Source: a bacterium (GTDB lineage: Bacteria; Patescibacteriota; Patescibacteriia; Veblenbacterales; UBA10138). Taken from it: a DNA stretch of 64,000 bases. The DNA is taken from assembly GCA_020057885.1 (NCBI GenBank), contig JAGVEX010000009.1:36704-100703 (forward strand), read 5' to 3'. The notes beneath the pieces were generated by a model that saw only the letters and a list, made by a program, of their open reading frames with translations, searched no databases and was not told the origin of the DNA. Position numbers and translations under genes: made by a program. Each line of letters begins with the position of its first letter. Position 1 is the stretch's first letter. This document shows, piece by piece, positions 15,626 to 61,939 of the stretch.

Positions 15626-15647
15626 ACTAATTTCTGCCCAATTAACC

Positions 15648-15696
15648 ATCGGGGAAAAATAAGCGATCGCTTATTTTTCCCCGATGTTATTTTAAT
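15648..15696 (+). terminator. perfect 39-bp palindrome / intrinsic terminator
   Basis: catcggggaaaaataagcgatcgcttatttttccccgatg followed by ttattttaatt. Confidence 0.55.
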
Positions 15697-15720: not shown

Positions 15721-15760
15721 ACAAAACTACTTTCTTATTCGCGCGAATAAGAAAGTAGTT
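15721..15760. repeat. perfect 40-bp palindrome
   Basis: aaaactactttcttattcgcgcgaataagaaagtagtttt. Confidence 0.5.
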
Positions 15761-15997
15761 TTAAATTGCTATAATTAATGGCCAATGGTAGTAGTACGGC
15801 CTCGACCTGGCGGATGATAAGGTGGGGATAGCTTGGCGCGTTTGGCCCCCTCGGCCTGGCGTACTTTAAAGGATGAAGGTGTGCGAAACCGCACTACTCG
15901 TTTATTGCTTTTTGATGAATAGTTACGCATATTGTTATTATATCACACAACTAAAGTAACTTTGAAAAGTTACGAAATGTAATACGGGGTGTTAAAA

Positions 15998-16521: not shown

Positions 16522-16567
16522 AGCTTTGTTTCCATCATTTAATTTGGTGGGTCCAGTGGGGATCGAA
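16522..16567. repeat. attL: 46-bp direct repeat duplicating the tRNA-Lys 3' end plus 23 nt of flank
   Basis: agctttgtttccatcatttaatttggtgggtccagtggggatcgaa, identical to 24023-24068. Confidence 0.65.
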
Positions 16568-16769
16568 ACACCTACTCCAATTATTCCAAAATTCAATTAA
16601 TATGGTATTAAGCTCTGAACATTGCCAAAATTCCATTTCTCAGTAGTACGCAACTATGGTCAACTTTTACTCACTTTCATCACTTCGTGGGCACCAGATG
16701 GGCACCAGCCTAAAGCAACTTTGGGAAGTGATGAAATGTGGTAGCTCAAATGGAAACGTATATGTAAAT

Positions 16770-17549
16770 TTATTCCAGTGCTACCTGGGTAATAAATTCT
16801 GGGAAAATCTCGACTTTTCGTACATCTGCCGGATTGAACAGAAACGATTGTACGTCTTGCCCTAACTCTTTGAAATCAAGGTTAGTAATAGACTCTAATA
16901 GCCGTTGGCGTAGTGCCGCCGCATCTCCAACGCCAAGCTTAACTTGAAGATAACCATAGTTTGGCTTGGTAAACGAGAGTAAAAAAACAATGTCGAAAAA
17001 ATCACGCCCCTTAGCTCGCTTGCGGTTGACGGCGGCGTAGATTTTCTGGGAGAGCAAGATATCTGGTGGGGTCACAAAAGCCTCTGAGAAAATATCGAAC
17101 TTGTTCAAAATTTTCTTATCGGGCTGGTACGGAAAATCATGCGCAAGACTGTCAATTTGTATCAGAATCTTCTCCTCCTGGAGAGGTGAGAGTTCGTTCA
17201 CAAACAAAATATCTGGTAAACGCACCCGACACCGGTAAGCATCTTTGCCCATAGTATCAACTTCAGCCTTTAGTCCCTGTCCTTCAAGCTTTACCTGTAC
17301 ATATTGAGCAAGCGCAGCAAACTCCCCCTCCTGAAGGCTAAAATTATCGAAATCCAAATCTTCTGAAAATCTAGTATTACCATATACAATACGGAGAGCG
17401 GTGCCTCCCAAAAATGAGAGTTTGCTCGCGTATTCAGAAGCAAATATAATTTCTAAAATTTTATATTGCAAATACTCCCGTAGTAGTCCGCGCTTGAATG
17501 GACGCAGCGATTCAGGGTATTGCTGTTCAATCTGCTCTAGGGAAAGCAT
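16770..17549 (-). CDS. AbiEii/DUF1814-family nucleotidyltransferase (type IV TA / abortive-infection toxin)
   Basis: 259 aa; FLGGTALRIVYGNTRFSEDLDFD matches the AbiEii GGTAL...R.SEDxD motif. Confidence 0.65.
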   Translation of the reverse strand: MLSLEQIEQQYPESLRPFKRGLLREYLQYKILEIIFASEYASKLSFLGGTALRIVYGNTRFSEDLDFDNFSLQEGEFAALAQYVQVKLEGQGLKAEVDTMGKDAYRCRVRLPDILFVNELSPLQEEKILIQIDSLAHDFPYQPDKKILNKFDIFSEAFVTPPDILLSQKIYAAVNRKRAKGRDFFDIVFLLSFTKPNYGYLQVKLGVGDAAALRQRLLESITNLDFKELGQDVQSFLFNPADVRKVEIFPEFITQVALE

Positions 17550-17550
17550 A

Positions 17551-18171
17551 CTATTTAGCTTGCTTTATTAATTCAATTAGCTCTTCTAGCCGAACTAAAA
17601 ACGTCTTGTTCTTAAATGCAACGGCATATTGGCGAAGCTTGGTCAGACTTGCCTTTTCCAAGAATTCCCTACTATTAAAGCGCCATTCATAAAAATCCGC
17701 TCGTTCAATAATTTTTGGATTTAGATATAAGTAATCCAGCACTGCCTTCTCAATTTCGGCAATTTTATACTTCTGTCCCTTATGCTTCTCAAGTTGATAG
17801 CCGAATAAAAGCCCTGGCTTAATTTTTCGATACGAGAATTGCGCGATCGGTGTCTTGAAGCTAGCTGTCTTCTTGCCAGCAGCTGACGTTACCGAATAGA
17901 CTCCCTCGGGAATGAGCCCATAATGTGAAAGCGCCATTTCAAACGAAACATAAGACGGAGCATACAACCTATTTGCAATCAAAAAGAGCGTCTCTTCGTT
18001 TAGGGTAATATCAGAAAACATATAGTACCCCCTACGAAGCTTTTTGATATAACCATTTTTCTGCCAATCCACAAGCTGATGAAGATAAAACTCCGGTGCA
18101 ACCTTTCGGATGTCAGCCAAAGAAAAAACCGTAAAATCCCCTAATTGCTCCTTTAGTTGCTGGTATCTCAT
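17551..18171 (-). CDS. AbiEi-like antitoxin/transcriptional regulator
   Basis: 206 aa; N-terminal wHTH-like FSLADIRKVAPEFYLHQLVDWQKNGYIKKLRRGYYMF; 1-nt spacing to AbiEii. Confidence 0.55.
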   Translation of the reverse strand: MRYQQLKEQLGDFTVFSLADIRKVAPEFYLHQLVDWQKNGYIKKLRRGYYMFSDITLNEETLFLIANRLYAPSYVSFEMALSHYGLIPEGVYSVTSAAGKKTASFKTPIAQFSYRKIKPGLLFGYQLEKHKGQKYKIAEIEKAVLDYLYLNPKIIERADFYEWRFNSREFLEKASLTKLRQYAVAFKNKTFLVRLEELIELIKQAK

Positions 18172-18476
18172 AATAGTTCCAAAAAGTACTGTTTTTAGTA
18201 CTCTTCGGAACCATTATAGCATAGATATACAATAAAATCAAGGCATCCAGCATTTGTAGCCATTTAAGCGAGGGTGGTGCGAGCTCTGGCCACACTAAGA
18301 TACAATTTAGCAAGGCTGTCTAAGTATTCCTCTGCCTTAGCTTTGGAAATTACAAGATTATACTTCGAGAGTGTATGGTCTTGGTATCTAACGACTAATT
18401 GTTTTGAATAAATCATTAGTCGAGCCCCAAGTCGTGGAGAATATTAGAATCAGAATTATAATTTTTTATAATATTT

Positions 18477-18986
18477 CTACTTCTGTATTTCTCTCGAGGG
18501 GTCAGTCTTGGCCAGTTGACTATAAGGTTGCATAGGTATTAAGCCAAGATCTTCCTGCATTTTTCTTTCTGAAGACTTTTTGATTTCGTCTATGACTTCC
18601 TCTACACTCATAGCTTTTCCGGATTTATATACTTCACGTATCAACCAAATAAGACACAGTGCCCCAGTAATAATAAAAATGGCTTGCCATACGTAGTGGG
18701 AAAATAACCAATCCTTAAAGTTTGAAGTTAGGATTGTTAATACTATTGATGCTAATAACCCAGCTGGAGCAATCCATGAACTTTTTCGTTCAACCGATGT
18801 CATATATTTAATTAGACATAAGTGGATTTTATCTTCAGTTGTAACAATAAAGCCCTCCCCTACATTCAAATGAACAGAAGACTTATTAATGAGTTCTTGG
18901 TGTACAGCTCCTTGAATAATCGTTGAGTTCCTTTTTTTAGATTTTCTCGCCATAGAGCTAGTTCCCTTGTGGGGGCAATAACCCAA
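18477..18986 (-). CDS. membrane protein (2 TM), unknown function; true start probably the internal Met (MARKSKKRN...)
   Basis: Hydrophobic helices IAPAGLLASIVLTILT and AIFIITGALCLIWLI. Confidence 0.4.
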   Translation of the reverse strand: MGYCPHKGTSSMARKSKKRNSTIIQGAVHQELINKSSVHLNVGEGFIVTTEDKIHLCLIKYMTSVERKSSWIAPAGLLASIVLTILTSNFKDWLFSHYVWQAIFIITGALCLIWLIREVYKSGKAMSVEEVIDEIKKSSERKMQEDLGLIPMQPYSQLAKTDPSREIQK

Positions 18987-19212
18987 GTGCCCCCAATGCG
19001 TGTTGACTAATAAATCCGCATCTTGTACAAACGACAGTCACTGATGGAAGGGCGGGCCCACCTAAGACTATCCCACCAATTTGTTCTTGTATTGGTTGGC
19101 TTAAATAGCCATCAACTAGAGAAAACTCCTGATTGCCACACCTTGGACATGGGTGACGGGCAAGCCTTTCGTTCAATCTATTTATTACTTCTTGTCGCTG
19201 TTCAGGTGTCAT
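18958..19212 (-). CDS. small zinc-ribbon protein
   Basis: 84 aa with CPRCG...CTRCG; overlaps the downstream membrane-protein ORF. Confidence 0.45.
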   Translation of the reverse strand: MTPEQRQEVINRLNERLARHPCPRCGNQEFSLVDGYLSQPIQEQIGGIVLGGPALPSVTVVCTRCGFISQHALGALGLLPPQGN

Positions 19213-19450
19213 ATTTAGACTTAGTTAAGTATATTTATATTACCATAAATCTTAAAACCATTCAGCCCAAGTAGGAGCTGGGTGAAACCAACTCGTAGCC
19301 GAACTTTGGGAAATGGTAAAAGTTGAAGAAAATTGTAAGGACTGATCAGATTGAGGCTATAAACACCGCACAGGACCTATATTAGTATACTACTTAAGGG
19401 GAGTAGAATTTATTTATTTAAGATTGCTTTATTTGTTACGGAATTTTTTA

Positions 19451-20149
19451 TTATTCCTCTGACCTAAAAAAACAAATGTCCTCAGACGGTGGTTGAGATG
19501 AAGCTTCTGTTGTTCCATCTGGTTCACAGTAAATACAATCTTTTTCTCCAAATATTACACATAGGCGCGACGACTTGCTACTAATCGCTATACGGCTCAC
19601 CGTCGCAACTAGAGTCTCGCGGGCAAGCGAGGTTAATTTACCATCTACTAAAGACTTAGGGTCAACTATTGTGAAAATATTCCCAAAGAGTTTTTCCTGT
19701 TCACTTGCTACATACTCAACAGGGTACTGTTTGCAGACGCGCCGCACAATGTAAGGGTAATTGAGTGACACGGAAAATTTATCTATGTCAATCCCAGAAT
19801 TTTTATCAATAACTTCTTTCAAGTTCTCATCAAATACTTTCAGCCTTTCCAAATGCCCGTTACTAACCGCAAAACCATAGTAATGACTTTCCCCTATAAT
19901 CTGTAAGATGACGCAATCTAAAGCTGGTAATAATAAATAGCTGGCTGTTGAAATGATTTTATCTGCCTTCGGTCCGTATTTTTCCATTACAAAATTAATT
20001 AGCATTTGCCTAACTTGTTCTACAGATTTGGTAGAGTCTTCTAAAGATAAGGGGGTGAATTTTTGTATCCCCAATTCTTTAAGTACTTTTACTTGGGGCT
20101 TGAATAACCAGGCGTAAAATTTTTTTAGAAAGTAAATCATAACTACCAC
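19451..20149 (-). CDS. hypothetical cytoplasmic protein, island cargo
   Basis: 232-aa ORF; 7-nt overlap with the upstream membrane-protein gene, implying an operon. Confidence 0.45.
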   Translation of the reverse strand: MVVMIYFLKKFYAWLFKPQVKVLKELGIQKFTPLSLEDSTKSVEQVRQMLINFVMEKYGPKADKIISTASYLLLPALDCVILQIIGESHYYGFAVSNGHLERLKVFDENLKEVIDKNSGIDIDKFSVSLNYPYIVRRVCKQYPVEYVASEQEKLFGNIFTIVDPKSLVDGKLTSLARETLVATVSRIAISSKSSRLCVIFGEKDCIYCEPDGTTEASSQPPSEDICFFRSEE

Positions 20150-20586
20150 CTAAAAAGAAAGAAATTAGCTATCATAGTGAGTAAATTAAGTGTAGGATCG
20201 CCATATTCATCAAAAAAATTATTAATTATGACGAATAAAATGATGGCGGGTACCCATAGTGCCCACAGAGGATAGACGTAGCTTTTTACTTTTTTTGAAA
20301 ACAGGTTGTGTAATAGAAAGAATGCCAGCACAAAGAATCCCACCCCCAACCAACGATCAGAATTTACAAAAGAAAAAAAGTTTACATCGCACGTTAAATA
20401 CTTAAATGACATGAAGAGCAACAAAACAATCATGTAACTTCTAAATATAAATCCTAAGAGATATAAAAGCCATCCCCATTTGTATCGCAACAAATCCTTC
20501 TCCCATTGTCTCCATTTTAACTCTTTACTTAATTTACTAGCGTTTTGATCAGTGGACTGAATGGAATTAGAAGTTTCGTCTACCAT
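20143..20586 (-). CDS. small membrane protein (4 TM), island cargo; likely ATG start at 20584-20586 (MVDETS...)
   Basis: Track ORF 20143..20616 begins at GTG. The first in-frame ATG gives MVDETSNSIQ...; hydrophobic helices follow. Confidence 0.45.
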   Translation of the reverse strand: MVDETSNSIQSTDQNASKLSKELKWRQWEKDLLRYKWGWLLYLLGFIFRSYMIVLLLFMSFKYLTCDVNFFSFVNSDRWLGVGFFVLAFFLLHNLFSKKVKSYVYPLWALWVPAIILFVIINNFFDEYGDPTLNLLTMIANFFLFRW

Positions 20587-20616
20587 AGAAATATATATTA
20601 GTAAAATTAGTAACAC

Positions 20617-20760
20617 AAAGCCCCGTGTTAGCTAGGCCTTGCGACCCCATACCGGTTTCCCGGTATGGCCCAATGACGAGTTGCTGAACACGGGGTTCAG
20701 TATCGTCATTGGGTCTTATGCTGCCATGCCCACAGCAGAGTCGTGGGTTTAGGCAATTAA
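20617..20760 (-). ncRNA. GC-rich highly structured 5' leader / ncRNA candidate (riboswitch-like)
   Basis: Nested perfect hairpins: CCAUACCGG-GAAA-CCGGUAUGG (GNRA loop), CCCAAUGACGA...UCGUCAUUGGG enclosing CUGAAC-CCCGUG-UUCAG, CUGC...GCAG, plus a possible pseudoknot CCCCGUG/CACGGGG. Lies directly upstream of the 20586 start. Confidence 0.3.
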
Positions 20761-20871
20761 ATTGTGATTATATATTAACAAAATTGTACACTATTATCAA
20801 TAAAACAAATTTGAATTTATATCCATAAGTGTCTATAGTTAATATTATAGTAGAGTCAATAATTTAATCGT

Positions 20872-21543
20872 ATGGTGTTGCTTGATGACATAATTAAGAT
20901 TATCGATGTTTTGCTTTTTCATTCGGAAGTTCGCAACGCTTCCGACAGTCTTCCATCTATCCCCATCATCATGTGCATAGGAGACCTTTCTTCGCCAGGT
21001 ATTTCTAAAAATAATACGGTGAATATTTTGAAGAAGTTGTACAATAACCACTGTATCTCCTCCATCCTTCCACTTGATGAGCCAGATGGTACTTTTGGAT
21101 ATGCTTTTTATAACAAGGACGATAGCGCAAGAATATTGTTAACAATATATAATTCGGCACTTATAAATTACAAACAGGAGTTGCTAGATAAATACCTAAA
21201 TAAAAAGACTACAATAGACCAATCCCATTCTTTGCAAAAAGATGGTATTTCATTTAATGACAATACAGGAGTTATAAAAGTAAAAGATAAACAATTTACT
21301 ATTGCGCCAGACACTAATGAGTTTGGGTTATGTAAGTTCATGTTCGATAGTAAAGTACTGGTACCTATAGATTGGTCAGAAGTATATAAATATGTACAAG
21401 GCGAGGAGCCAAAAGATAAGGTTAAAGATAGAAAGGTAATCTATGATGCAATGAAAAGGGTTAATAGACAAATACGAGAGAAAATTGGTGTTTCTGAAGA
21501 TTTTTTCACAGCTCAAAGAAAGACCATCAGACGAAATTACTAA
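20872..21543 (+). CDS. hypothetical protein, island cargo (AT-rich)
   Basis: 223-aa ORF. Confidence 0.4.
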   Translation: MVLLDDIIKIIDVLLFHSEVRNASDSLPSIPIIMCIGDLSSPGISKNNTVNILKKLYNNHCISSILPLDEPDGTFGYAFYNKDDSARILLTIYNSALINYKQELLDKYLNKKTTIDQSHSLQKDGISFNDNTGVIKVKDKQFTIAPDTNEFGLCKFMFDSKVLVPIDWSEVYKYVQGEEPKDKVKDRKVIYDAMKRVNRQIREKIGVSEDFFTAQRKTIRRNY

Positions 21544-21981
21544 AAGTGATCAAAAGTGGCCAAAAGTGGCTCACTGGGCCATTTGCTATGGTTAAGGTAT
21601 AAACAACCTTAACTTTTTTAATTGAACGATAATCATAGAGTTGTATAGAATCGTATACCATAGTATTCAAGATGACTCTGGCACACAAGGTGAATCCATA
21701 AGATGTAATTTACGTTCCTACCTCACCCCCACTACCTTAATGCTAGTCTAACGAATGTAAAAATGGCGTGTCGCAGAGAGAATAACACCCAGGTGAGATT
21801 GTAACTGATTGTTGTGATGAATATATATCACAAGTGTATGAAAATTTTCACTTTGACAAGCATTACAAAACATCAATAATTGGCTTAGTTGAGGTTAAAA
21901 TCATTGTTATAGGAGCATATTAAGTTGTTAAGTTTGTTAACATACTAACTGGGCAATAAATATGGAATATAAATTCAAATT

Positions 21982-22680
21982 ATGGAACAAATTGATGAAA
22001 TACTAAAAAAGAACCCCCCAGTTCAAGCGGAGTCTATAGCGACTTTTGCTACTCTACCCATTAGGCCGAAACTAAAAGAGACGAGGTTATTTTTAGATAA
22101 TGAATATTTTAGTGAAGGGTATGCGGCCAAATTCCCTAATTGGGTGACAGTGGTGTATGGCATATTAGCTAAGTATGCTAACGCAAAGGAACAAACGTGC
22201 TTTCCATCATATGAGACCATAATGAAAGGGTGTGGCGTAAGTAGGAATAAAGTTAATCCCGCCATAAAGGTACTTGAAATTCATAATATCATTGCTGTCC
22301 AACGCTCTAGGGGAGGTAAAAAGAAGCCGAATCAATATATTTTACTTAGTACAACAGTTTGGGAGTCATTTAACAATACCTATTTGAATACGGTTTTAAG
22401 AAACAAAAAGAACCATCAAACAGTACCTGATTTGTATGCCAAACAGTATCTAAATGAGTATCCAAACAGTACCCCCGTTGATACTGTAAATCAACTAACT
22501 AAATCAACTAATGAAATCAATGACGAACCAATAAAAAAACTAGATCAATTAAGACAACAACTAAAAAATGGGGGTATTCTTAAAAGGTCGACAGCCAATG
22601 AGGAGGAAACTCCACTATTAGGTGGTAAAATAGAAGAGTCCACTAGCGGCATTAAGGCTGCTATCAAAGTTGTACCTTAA
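21982..22680 (+). CDS. phage/plasmid replication-type helix-turn-helix protein (HTH_36-like)
   Basis: 232 aa; CFPSYETIMKGCGVSRNKVNPAIKVLEIHNIIAVQR resembles the PF13730-type wHTH of replication initiators. Confidence 0.45.
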   Translation: MEQIDEILKKNPPVQAESIATFATLPIRPKLKETRLFLDNEYFSEGYAAKFPNWVTVVYGILAKYANAKEQTCFPSYETIMKGCGVSRNKVNPAIKVLEIHNIIAVQRSRGGKKKPNQYILLSTTVWESFNNTYLNTVLRNKKNHQTVPDLYAKQYLNEYPNSTPVDTVNQLTKSTNEINDEPIKKLDQLRQQLKNGGILKRSTANEEETPLLGGKIEESTSGIKAAIKVVP

Positions 22681-22686
22681 CAATTT

Positions 22687-22902
22687 ATGAGTATTGATTC
22701 ACACATTACTTCTAGATTGCCCATGCTCCTAACACCTACGGAGGTAGCCAAGGCTTTACGTATTTCTATGGCGGGCATTTATCGTTTAGTTGATAAACGA
22801 GAGCTTCCGTTCCATAAAGTAGGTCGTGGCTTACGATTTACAGAACAGGATATAGTAGACTACTTATCTAGTGGCCGTGTTGAATCAATAAGGAGAATGT
22901 AA
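22687..22902 (+). CDS. xis: excisionase-family DNA-binding protein
   Basis: 71 aa; LLTPTEVAKALRISMAGIYRLVDKRELPFHKVGRGLRF is the MerR-like excisionase HTH; immediately upstream of int. Confidence 0.6.
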   Translation: MSIDSHITSRLPMLLTPTEVAKALRISMAGIYRLVDKRELPFHKVGRGLRFTEQDIVDYLSSGRVESIRRM

Positions 22903-22907
22903 ATGCT

Positions 22908-24110
22908 ATGTGTGTTCGTAAAATAGGTACATCTTGGAGAATAGATATTAGGTATCAACACATGCGGTACCGCCTTAAAAGCCCTGAAAACTCTAAAGCT
23001 GGAGCAGAGGCCTATGAAGCTACTTTGCGACAGAAATTAGCCCGTGGTGAGTCTATAGAGCCTGACAAACAAACACAGGTAACGACTATGCCTACGTTCA
23101 AAGAGTTTGCTGAAAAATGGTATCGCATCTATGTTCAAAATAATAATAAACCCTCGGAACAAAATACTAAGTCGTTAACTTTAGGTGCACACCTTTACCC
23201 GTGGTTTGGAAGTACTACGATTGATAAAATTACAGCATTACAGATTGAAGAATATAAAGCGTCAAAGCTTAAAACTGGTTTATCAGAGAAGACGGTTAAT
23301 AATCACTTGATAATTTTGAGTAAGTGTTTACGTACAGCTCAAGATTGGGCCGTGATAAGTGTTATGCCAAAAGTTCAACTACTTAAAGTTCCACCGTCAC
23401 GCTTTGATTTTCTGACACAAGAAGAAAGCGAGAGGCTACTTAAGTCAGTAAACCATCCCTTATGGCACGACATGATTCTATTGGCTTTAAGGACCGGCTT
23501 ACGCTTTGGTGAGATTATTGGTTTAGAGTGGAGTGATATAGATTTTGGGGCACAGGTATTAAATGTGAGGAGGTCTATTGTTGGGGGCGTGATTGGTAGC
23601 CCTAAGAGTAACAAAACACGCTGTATACCACTGACTAATGACATCATTGAGATGTTAAGAAAAAGGCAACATGCTAAAGGATTGGTGTTTGACGATAGTA
23701 TCAGCCAGGTAGTGAACTATTTCACTGCCAGAGATAACCTGACTAAACTTTGCAAGTCTGCTGGTTTGAGAGCTATAGGATGGCACACACTTCGTCATAG
23801 CTTCGCATCACAATTGGTAGCTAAAGGAGTTCCAATAATTACAGTACAAACATTACTAGGTCATTCAGATATAAGGATGACTACACGTTATGCGCACTTA
23901 GCTCCATCAACTTTACGTGAAGCGGTCATACTTTTAGAGAGCAATCCGAGAAATTTTGGGCACCAGATGGGCACTGAGTTTGCAACCCTATTTGACTCAC
24001 CAACGAAAAAAGCTCTTAATAGAGCTTTGTTTCCATCATTTAATTTGGTGGGTCCAGTGGGGATCGAACCCACGACACACGGCTTAAAAGGCCGCTGCTC
24101 TACCAACTGA
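22908..24110 (+). CDS. int: tyrosine-type site-specific integrase
   Basis: 400 aa; catalytic region LRTGLRFGEI...WHTLRHSFASQLVAKGVPIITVQTLLGHSDIRMTTRYAHL (R...HxxR...Y); reading frame runs into attR/tRNA. Confidence 0.85.
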   Translation: MCVRKIGTSWRIDIRYQHMRYRLKSPENSKAGAEAYEATLRQKLARGESIEPDKQTQVTTMPTFKEFAEKWYRIYVQNNNKPSEQNTKSLTLGAHLYPWFGSTTIDKITALQIEEYKASKLKTGLSEKTVNNHLIILSKCLRTAQDWAVISVMPKVQLLKVPPSRFDFLTQEESERLLKSVNHPLWHDMILLALRTGLRFGEIIGLEWSDIDFGAQVLNVRRSIVGGVIGSPKSNKTRCIPLTNDIIEMLRKRQHAKGLVFDDSISQVVNYFTARDNLTKLCKSAGLRAIGWHTLRHSFASQLVAKGVPIITVQTLLGHSDIRMTTRYAHLAPSTLREAVILLESNPRNFGHQMGTEFATLFDSPTKKALNRALFPSFNLVGPVGIEPTTHGLKGRCSTN

Positions 24111-24121
24111 GCTATGGACCC
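24046..24121 (-). tRNA. tRNA-Lys (anticodon UUU), CCA encoded
   Basis: Minus strand GGGTCCATAGCTCAGTTGGTAGAGCAGCGGCCTTTTAAGCCGTGTGTCGTGGGTTCGATCCCCACTGGACCCACCA folds as a cloverleaf with anticodon loop CUUUUAA. Confidence 0.85.
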
Positions 24122-61215: not shown

Positions 61216-61464
61216 TTATTTATTTTTTGGTTTTAAGGAAACATATTTCTCTTCAATTTGGCGGTGCTGCTTTCGCAGATAACACTGTTTTATTTTTAAT
61301 TGACGCCATTCTCGCGCCGCTAACATTAAATCATGCTTGGCTTTCAATTCTTGTTTTATATTTTGACAAGCAATCTTAATCTCTATAAGTTGCTTATGTA
61401 AATCTTGAATGGTTGTTTCTTCTTTAATAGTTGTTCCTGCTGCACCATTGTTCCATAAAGACAT
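61216..61464 (-). CDS. hypothetical coiled-coil protein
   Basis: 82-aa ORF. Confidence 0.35.
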   Translation of the reverse strand: MSLWNNGAAGTTIKEETTIQDLHKQLIEIKIACQNIKQELKAKHDLMLAAREWRQLKIKQCYLRKQHRQIEEKYVSLKPKNK

Positions 61465-61939
61465 GGCTAACTCCTTTTAAAAGTGACTGATAATCAATTG
61501 TTAATTTACATTTTAATTTTATTTAAAACAAAAAGCGCTTTTCGCCCTAAAGCATCCGAGAGAGAAGAAACTTCTCTAACAGAAAATCTTAAGGACGAAA
61601 AGCGCTTTTCAAATTGTAAAACACTTTCCGCGGTACCACCCTGATTGGCTAATAACTAATGGCAACCTGCCTATAGCATTAACCCTCTTTATGCACTCCC
61701 AAATTTATGAGATATACACTTATTCTATAACGGGAACTCCCGTCCTTATCTAATATTCAAAAAATGAAATTCAATAAGGCAACTCCAGAGGGAACTTCCA
61801 CTAAAATACCCCGGAAAATGCTCACAATCAAGGCATTTTCTCCCTGTACAGGATAAATAAAGTGTACTTTCCTCTTTCACTGTTTTTAACTAATTTCTAA
61901 AAGAACAACCTGTAAAAACTATTATACACCCAGTTAAAA

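Follow-up and report, generated by a model that had tools for sequence, protein, structure and literature searches.

What occupies the 7.5 kb between two identical 46-bp sequences at a tRNA-Lys(UUU) gene of a Veblenbacterales bacterium, and which of its genes belong to the element proper? The site lies in a 64,000-nucleotide stretch of contig JAGVEX010000009.1 (assembly GCA_020057885.1), referred to throughout as the window. A first-pass annotation had read the locus as an integrative island with an integrase, excisionase, and replication core, an AbiE pair, and two uncharacterized two-gene modules as cargo. Our analyses support a 7.5-kb site-specific integrative element at the 3' end of tRNA-Lys(UUU), a reading to which we assign a probability of about 0.75, and they redraw the line between its backbone and its cargo. 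In itself, the element is unremarkable, because AbiE-bearing integrase islands at tRNA genes are common; its main value is that it supplies a defined setting for the LOOT RNA and leads to a conserved cassette encoding a zinc-ribbon (Zn-ribbon) protein and a protein with two transmembrane segments (2-TM).

Attachment sites and target tRNA gene

The sequence AGCTTTGTTTCCATCATTTAATTTGGTGGGTCCAGTGGGGATCGAA occurs only twice, on the same strand and with no mismatches, at the two positions given in the first-pass annotation, and none of 100 dinucleotide shuffles gave two matches. The two copies are spaced 7501 bp apart, enclosing 7,455 bp of unique DNA. The intact tRNA gene lies at the integrase end of the element, and the displaced 3' fragment lies at the far end. 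The second copy does overlap the 3' end of the tRNA, as had been claimed, but only half of it is within the gene: 23 nt (24046-24068) constitute the tRNA-Lys 3' end, including the CCA, and the remaining 23 nt are from downstream of the tRNA. The attachment features are as follows.

16522-16567, plus strand: attL, the left 46-bp copy; its last 23 nt (16545-16567) are the displaced tRNA-Lys 3' fragment
16688-16705, plus strand: first copy of an exact 18-bp repeat, TGGGCACCAGATGGGCAC (repeat search); candidate arm-type integrase site (P' arm)
23957-23974, plus strand: second copy of the 18-bp repeat (repeat search), within the 3' region of int; candidate arm-type site (P arm)
24023-24068, plus strand: attR, the right 46-bp copy (repeat search)
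24046-24121, minus strand: intact tRNA-Lys(UUU), the integration target (ARAGORN and Rfam)

The exact repeat, its position at a tRNA 3' end, and the neighboring int and xis genes bear out the attL/attR signature of a site-specific integrative element. The 18-bp repeat does not appear in the first-pass annotation. Each of its copies contains two GGGCAC half-sites, and in the circular form the copies would flank the core, an arrangement that suggests arm-type integrase sites. The terminator-like hairpin of tRNA-Lys (24009-24028, minus strand) is partly element derived, and its sequence is also present at the same place in a related metagenome contig, L083, described below.

Under the proposed mechanism, Int would recombine attP with attB within the 46-bp identity, such that the tRNA 3' end and its terminator are rebuilt from the element copy, and Xis would direct excision. 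The predicted empty-site junction (attB) is CTAAAAATGAAC + 46-mer + CCCACGACAC, and the predicted circle junction (attP) is CTCTTAATAG + 46-mer + ACACCTACTCC.

Gene content and classification

All of the open reading frames (ORFs) named in the first-pass annotation were present on recheck. Hidden Markov model (HMM) searches with Pfam, PADLOC, PHROG, and NCBIfam over the 10 island ORFs confirmed the core of integrase, excisionase, and replication-type helix-turn-helix (HTH) protein, as well as the AbiEi/AbiEii module, whose adjacent genes have strong matches in PADLOC and Pfam. The HMM check that had been proposed for the four remaining cargo proteins yielded no PADLOC match beyond AbiE.

16770-17549, minus strand: AbiEii nucleotidyltransferase toxin, 259 amino acids (aa) (PF08843, 4.5e-17; PADLOC AbiEii, 4e-94)
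17551-18171, minus strand: AbiEi antitoxin/regulator, 206 aa, 1 nt upstream of abiEii (PADLOC AbiEi, 2e-61)
21542-21570, plus strand: 10-bp iterons, AAAAGTGGCC x2.9, right behind the gene for a 223-aa protein (repeat search)
21982-22680, plus strand: Rep-like initiator, 232 aa, HTH_36 (Pfam, 2e-11; PHROG replication initiation, 2e-13)
22687-22902, plus strand: excisionase (HTH_17), 71 aa (PF12728, 3e-14; 77% identical in L083)
22908-24110, plus strand: tyrosine integrase, 400 aa (PF00589, 2e-32; phrog_1, 2e-70)

A tDNA island is defined by a tRNA gene with a displaced fragment of it, an integrase gene, and a size above 2 kb (PMC4383910). The element conforms to this definition, having a full tRNA, a cognate direct 3' fragment, and a tyrosine recombinase inside. 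With tDNA islands of the Islander and P4-like types, it shares the intact tRNA and displaced 3' fragment as direct repeats, an int gene adjoining the tRNA, an xis gene, and a size of more than 2 kb; it differs from them in being very small, in lacking recognizable transfer or virion genes, and in its unusual backbone (LOOT RNA and proteins of 223 and 229 aa), which is known from two sequences only. Searches of the 10 ORFs with Pfam and PHROG recovered no virion structural, packaging, or lysis gene, so the element is not classed as a prophage. Similarly, Pfam, NCBIfam, and PHROG returned no relaxase, coupling protein, or type IV secretion gene, and it is not classed as an integrative and conjugative or integrative and mobilizable element.

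The order of int, xis, rep, and iterons fits that of a phage satellite, although no packaging-interference gene was recognized among the island ORFs with Pfam or PHROG. Phage satellites (phage-inducible chromosomal islands, P4-like elements, and minimal islands) have in common with this element an int-xis-regulator-rep-ori layout, small size, and accessory anti-phage genes, and the other occurrences of the LOOT RNA family are in phage contigs. Unlike in these satellites, genes for capsid redirection, the terminase small subunit, or a primase-helicase were not found in the element, and no helper is known. The element is a small, tRNA-targeting integrative element that is probably replicative and helper dependent, the dependence on a helper for transfer following from the lack of capsid, relaxase, and secretion genes. 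That helper would most likely be a phage, as for satellites.

The HTH_36 protein matches many PHROG families of replication initiators (best E value, 2e-13). It resembles the lambda O-type initiators, whose origin lies within the gene, in its N-terminal winged-helix initiator domain (PHROG "replication initiation O-like") and in the direct repeats within the rep ORF of both the window element and L083; in contrast to lambda, the iterons have no sequence similarity, and the origin is a candidate proposed from repeats. These repeats, at 22417-22473 (23 nt x2.5) and 22487-22520 (13 nt x2.6), constitute the candidate origin. Binding of Rep to the iterons would allow the circle to replicate.

The AbiE module shows nothing unusual: AbiEi (winged HTH) and AbiEii (DUF1814 nucleotidyltransferase) are adjacent and 1 nt apart, and the bicistronic arrangement and strong HMM matches are those of the type IV toxin-antitoxin and abortive infection system (PMC3985639). 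AbiE has also been described as stabilizing integrative elements (PMC11062541). Here, AbiE and the Zn-ribbon/2-TM cassette might together stabilize the element, exclude phages, or both.

An integrase gene that reads across the attachment core

The int ORF does not reach a stop until 24110: it crosses the attR core and ends inside the antisense strand of tRNA-Lys. Integrated Int is 400 aa in length and ends in ...IEPTTHGLKGRCSTN (tail ...IE-PTTHGLKGRCSTN), and the predicted product of the excised form, in which 24068 is joined to 16568, is 397 aa and ends in ...IETPTPIIPKFN (tail ...IE-TPTPIIPKFN). Because int spans attP, integration is predicted to swap the last 10 to 13 residues of Int. The L083 int gene has the same layout and also reads into its tRNA.

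In phage Mx8, attP is inside int, and integration makes a new 3' end for the gene (PMC6070905, a myxophage review; PMC4383910, on Islander). The Mx8 intP/intX pair and the present gene thus share an Int ORF that crosses the attachment core and acquires a new 3' end upon integration, but only the 10 to 13 terminal residues change here, and the element is not a phage. This would be another natural case in which the C terminus of an integrase is rewritten by integration, a change that may bias the reaction toward integration or excision. A Desulfobacteraceae metagenome-assembled genome (L067, 4-690) encodes a 33%-identical integrase whose alignment extends to position 672, 59 nt into an antisense tRNA-Met at 614-690. 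Crossing of attP by the int ORF may be characteristic of this integrase clade.

A conserved backbone shared with sister elements

Two metagenome contigs indicate what is constant in the element. A deep search with the 229-aa protein detected a 96-aa relative of its N-terminal part on a 1.8-kb contig, L082, where synteny was reached through the N-domain relative P0007; this contig also holds a LOOT RNA, a small membrane protein, and a divergent homologue of the 223-aa protein. A metagenome scan with an alignment of the 223-aa protein then recovered L083 (Ga0172379_10011816), the only other family member found to have the element layout at tRNA-Lys, with L082 showing the same core. From the tRNA inward, L083 contains the following, in the same gene order as in the window.

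tRNA-Lys(UUU): the same target gene as in the window
int: 73% identical to that of the window; also reads into the tRNA
xis: 77% identical
rep: 48% identical
217-aa homologue of the 223-aa protein: 43% identical
LOOT RNA, divergently oriented: 80.2 bits
73-aa 2-TM protein: unrelated in sequence to the 147-aa membrane protein of the window, but in the same position
111-aa homologue of the N-domain of the 229-aa protein: 46% identical
terminator-like hairpin, followed by the end of the contig

Iteron arrays occupy the same two positions in L083 as in the window element. The corresponding part of the window, beyond rep, is as follows.

19451-20140, minus strand: two-domain protein, 229 aa (given as 232 aa in the first-pass annotation); its N-domain is kept in L083 and L082, and its C-domain belongs to an unannotated small-protein family
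20143-20586, minus strand: membrane protein, 147 aa, 3 or 4 TM segments; the first ORF after LOOT
20616-20755, minus strand: LOOT RNA with 3' extension (Rfam match at 20634-20755)
20762-20800, minus strand: promoter-like sequence, TTGATA-17-TAATAT, with a conserved ACAAT motif (consensus match only)
20872-21543, plus strand: 223-aa backbone protein, divergently oriented with respect to LOOT (43% identical homologue in L083)

The backbone is therefore int, xis, rep, and the gene for the 223-aa protein, followed in divergent orientation by LOOT, a small membrane protein, and the N-domain of the 229-aa protein. Since L083 and L082 share this layout, LOOT, the membrane protein, the 229-aa N-domain, and the 223-aa gene are assigned, from gene order and similarity, to the backbone; the first-pass annotation had counted the membrane protein and the 229-aa protein, with their RNA leader, as a cargo module, which does not hold. 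By contrast, the sequenced part of L083 shows no AbiEi/AbiEii, no Zn-ribbon/2-TM pair, and no counterpart of the 229-aa C-domain, on which ground the AbiE pair and the cassette are probably accessory. None of the four ORFs once listed as cargo is spurious, each having homologues or conserved synteny.

The predicted 4-TM protein is indeed a membrane protein, but only three of its hydrophobic segments are clear, and the fourth is weak. A word-index search with the 229-aa protein found only the query itself, and a full phmmer search of 50%-identity cluster representatives found 67 further matching proteins, nearly all aligned to residues ~125 to 224. These relatives of the C-domain are mostly stand-alone proteins of 100 to 140 aa with the motif YPYxVVR...CxVFGExDCVYCEPDG...PPSGG; a few are fused to tetratricopeptide (TPR) repeats or to DUF932. 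In an AlphaFold2 (AF2) model built from 63 sequences, the C-domain is confident (means of 10-residue blocks, 88 to 98), and the N-terminal part is weak and helical. The 229-aa protein looks like a fusion of a backbone N-domain with a small, mobile C-domain. The gene neighbors of four of its relatives (three of the C-domain and one of the N-domain) showed no common pattern. The closest stand-alone C-domain relative (P0006, L081 1028-2263) has an ADP-ribosylglycohydrolase gene after it, and two other relatives lack such a neighbor.

The 223-aa gene is absent from the first-pass annotation, and its family has only two members in a profile search of 5.8 billion protein clusters. Its product is possibly a DNA-binding regulator. 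A search of PDB sequences returned no match, and the AF2 model was discarded (predicted local distance difference test score, 44); with the model this poor and the search empty, an apparent OmpR-like winged helix at the C terminus was set aside as an unverified impression.

LOOT RNA, a possible leader of the membrane-protein operon

The structured RNA that had been noticed ahead of the membrane-protein gene is real but not novel: the GC-rich leader is a full-length LOOT RNA (Rfam RF03000), which matches model positions 1 to 121 at 20634-20755 (minus strand), with all six helices and a score of 79.3 bits against a gathering score of 46.4. The promoter-like site ends ~15 nt upstream of it. The LOOT motif is attributed to the 2017 survey of Weinberg et al. 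(PMC5737381), the text of which does not name LOOT. In a literature search, LOOT was named once, in passing, in a structure-prediction paper. In contrast to the Rfam entry, the copy in the window sits in an assembled chromosome, inside a defined mobile element, and has a promoter-like site.

Scanning viral contigs with a LOOT pattern gave 62 matches, most of which are chance matches or other RNAs. Of 10 loci submitted to Rfam, 5 passed, representing four distinct phage-like contigs with LOOT, and the neighbors on LOOT-bearing contigs of this kind include terminase and ParB-methylase, Zot, SU10-type capsid and portal, and reverse transcriptase genes. None of the island proteins is encoded at the 62 pattern loci, except for a distant integrase match (25% identity) in L034. 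On one phage-like contig (L003, 5520-7071, minus strand), LOOT immediately follows a co-oriented reverse-transcriptase gene. Separately, a near-identical sequence of ~135 nt, found in 13 viral contigs (L008, L009, L018, L021, L023, L024, L029, L038, L039, L045, L051, L055, and L062), begins with the hairpin-1 motif of LOOT (GCCTAAACC...GGCATGGC). The two copies tried (L008 and L023) scored below the Rfam threshold for LOOT, and this sequence may be a diverged LOOT-like RNA.

Aligning six LOOT sequences together with their 3' flanks revealed an additional 10-bp helix that is absent from the Rfam model, in which GAACCCCGUG (20698-20689, hairpin-2 loop region) pairs with CACGGGGC-UUU (20627-20617) in a G-rich 3' tail. 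This helix crosses the lower stem of hairpin 2 and would thus form a pseudoknot. It is paired in 60 of 60 alignment cells, with changes on both sides in four of its pairs; neither the pairing nor the covariation score was attained by any of 500 shuffles, and only 38 to 55% of cells were paired in slid controls. With six sequences, the pseudoknot is suggestive but not proven.

Transcription of LOOT would start from a dedicated promoter at the head of the membrane-protein operon, and the RNA could serve either as the leader of that operon or as a separate small RNA. The second possibility, that LOOT is a free-standing, trans-acting small RNA whose place before the operon is incidental rather than regulatory, falls only slightly short of even odds. 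Rfam classifies LOOT as "Gene; sRNA," and the genes downstream of it vary, encoding a portal protein, a Zn-ribbon/Glucodextran_B protein, a 907-aa protein, and a NucS-like protein. A role of the G-rich tail as a ribosome-binding site is also weakened by the rarity of Shine-Dalgarno motifs in the host, where they precede only 6 of 29 long ORFs and upstream regions are AT-rich. Set against this, LOOT and the next ORF have the same orientation at each of the six distinct loci and lie within ~140 nt of each other at five; no terminator-like site separates LOOT from the ORF in the window; and the window element and L083 both keep the order of LOOT, membrane protein, and N-domain even though their membrane proteins are unrelated. 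The ACAAT motif just upstream of LOOT is also conserved in most of the six loci.

If LOOT does act as a leader, masking of a ribosome site, or sequestration of a Shine-Dalgarno sequence, by its tail is given low weight, owing both to the scarcity of such motifs in the host and to the start codons: the codon following the G-rich tail is GUG, AUG, or UUG, but it opens the main ORF in only two of the six loci. LOOT had neither a known function nor a defined genetic context, and it is now fixed in a two-member family of mobile elements and in several phage contigs, making its role open to genetics.

A Zn-ribbon/2-TM cassette on three kinds of mobile elements

Next to abiEi lie the two genes of the other module.

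18477-18953, minus strand: 2-TM membrane protein, 158 aa from ATG, second gene of the cassette (phrog_32870, 1e-13; homologues P0003 to P0005, Shoya gp28, and a Klebsiella plasmid ORF; TM segments)
18958-19212, minus strand: Zn-ribbon protein, 84 aa (CPRC...CTRC), first gene of the cassette (weak Zn-ribbon matches; Shoya gp27 region, 31% identical; Klebsiella plasmid ORF, 39.5% identical, E value of 5e-23)

Both genes are real, but the overlap originally attributed to them is not seen from the ATG (18953), which leaves a 4-nt gap; overlap would need an upstream TTG. The two genes recur, adjacent and in the same order and on the same strand, in the temperate Arthrobacter phage Shoya (genes 27 and 28; MN908684, 21410-22128; tblastn), between the lysis genes and the integrase/immunity region. 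Both are also on a 4,648-bp Col-type mobilizable Klebsiella plasmid (NZ_CP055165.1, 1600-2326), directly behind rep. The Zn-ribbon proteins are 37 to 40% identical in pairwise comparisons (E values of 5e-23 and 3e-18). The check for co-occurrence of the gene pair elsewhere therefore succeeded, the pair being conserved on a phage and a plasmid. Shoya gene 27 is seemingly annotated too short, in that homology begins ~90 nt upstream of its annotated start. The Klebsiella plasmid carries few genes besides rep, mob, and nadS, the Zn-ribbon/2-TM pair being among them.

Three other clusters of 2-TM homologues, on contigs of ~1 kb, are followed by a TPR protein and are not preceded by a Zn-ribbon protein; in two of these three contexts (L074-L080), the TPR gene overlaps the end of the 2-TM gene. 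The TPR genes beside 2-TM homologues and the TPR fusions of the 229-aa C-domain may reflect a common link to TPR-based sensing.

The assertion that neither two-gene module matches a recognized family holds for the Zn-ribbon/2-TM pair with respect to curated families but fails elsewhere, given the match of phrog_32870 to the 2-TM protein and the 67 other matches to the 229-aa C-domain. No model in Pfam, NCBIfam, or PADLOC covers either cassette protein or its relatives. In PADLOC-DB 2.0, at an E value of 0.1 or less, there is no family for the four window proteins of the cassette and of the membrane/229-aa module, nor any match to the phage and plasmid copies of both cassette genes or to the three further 2-TM homologues.

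A defence role for either two-gene module is read from context only. Conserved in synteny and covered by no curated family, the Zn-ribbon/2-TM pair is a fair candidate for a defence or toxin system and a credible accessory conflict module. It is nonetheless quite conceivable, though we hold it to be somewhat the less probable view, that the cassette performs mobile-element housekeeping, such as entry exclusion, membrane anchoring of replication, or an accessory role in lysis. The pair on the Klebsiella plasmid begins with a 4-nt overlap on the end of rep, that of Shoya comes after the lysis genes, PADLOC matches none of the proteins, and the other three 2-TM homologues pair with TPR proteins rather than with Zn-ribbons, all of which would suit such functions. 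The pair is, however, present on three unrelated types of replicons in three distant hosts and missing from the sequenced part of the sister element L083, a patchy spread typical of accessory conflict genes, and it adjoins AbiE in the window element. With the cassette tied to three kinds of mobile elements in three distant hosts, and with the Klebsiella copy tractable in the laboratory, a test of the defence or toxin function of this conflict-module candidate is straightforward.

A broader proposal combines both subjects: LOOT would be a cis-acting 5' riboregulator whose pseudoknot gates a membrane-protein operon in phages and satellites, and the Zn-ribbon/2-TM pair would be a membrane-acting defence, exclusion, or toxin-antitoxin system not described before. 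As a conjunction, this is speculative and, on balance, unlikely.

Mobility, rarity, and genomic setting

The flanks of the element are ordinary chromosome, encoding aspartyl-, asparaginyl-, and prolyl-tRNA synthetases (AspRS, AsnRS, and ProRS), DnaB, SecY, EF-Tu, and EF-G. EF-Tu, SecY, and seven island proteins were looked up among 15 billion proteins, and none has a full-length relative at 90% identity. The host belongs to a poorly sampled lineage, and because its EF-Tu and SecY are also singletons, the rarity of the island proteins reflects the poor sampling of the host. Island-free strains were sought by exact look-up of the NUDIX and DnaQ-like proteins that flank the element, with no record found.

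Several results weigh against the reading of the locus as an integrative element, or limit it. Neither an empty attB nor an attP junction was found, the 46-mer having no match in the metagenome contig collection, and a scan of species-representative genomes with the integrase gave only relatives of 35% identity or less, with no close relative. A 7,515-bp Logan contig (SRR6489632) was considered as an excised circle and rejected: it equals window positions 16538-24052, i.e., the island plus 30 nt of each repeat, and is an artefact of the k=31 assembly graph, which breaks at the repeat, and is therefore uninformative about circles. Among the island ORFs, no function in transfer or packaging was recognized, leaving cell-to-cell mobility unexplained, and the division into backbone and cargo is based on one incomplete relative, L083, which ends ~440 bp past the backbone.

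The failure to find an empty site or circle, the lack of structural, lysis, relaxase, and secretion genes among the 10 ORFs, and the singleton status at 90% identity of every island protein looked up would be expected of a cryptic remnant, a prophage or island that has decayed and lost its mobility after a single integration and whose ORFs of unknown kind are drifting leftovers. We consider this improbable, because the 46-bp and 18-bp repeats are perfect, the backbone ORFs are all intact, the backbone order is kept, with proteins 43 to 77% identical, at the same tRNA of a second host (indicating selection and independent integration), and the rarity extends to host EF-Tu and SecY. The perfect repeats and intact ORFs argue instead for a recent or still active integrative element.

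Other features of the window

Outside the island, in the intergenic region just left of the NUDIX gene, are two perfect 40-bp palindromes (15647-15686 and 15723-15762), each of 20 + 20 nt, 100% complementary and loop-free, situated 36 bp apart. At 473 aa, the AspRS of the host is short, and its match to the bacterial model falls into two separate stretches, which we read as the loss of the insertion domain. A T-box leader (61588-61889, minus strand; 114 bits) is followed on the same strand by an ORF of only 82 aa (61216-61464), an unusual target for a T-box.

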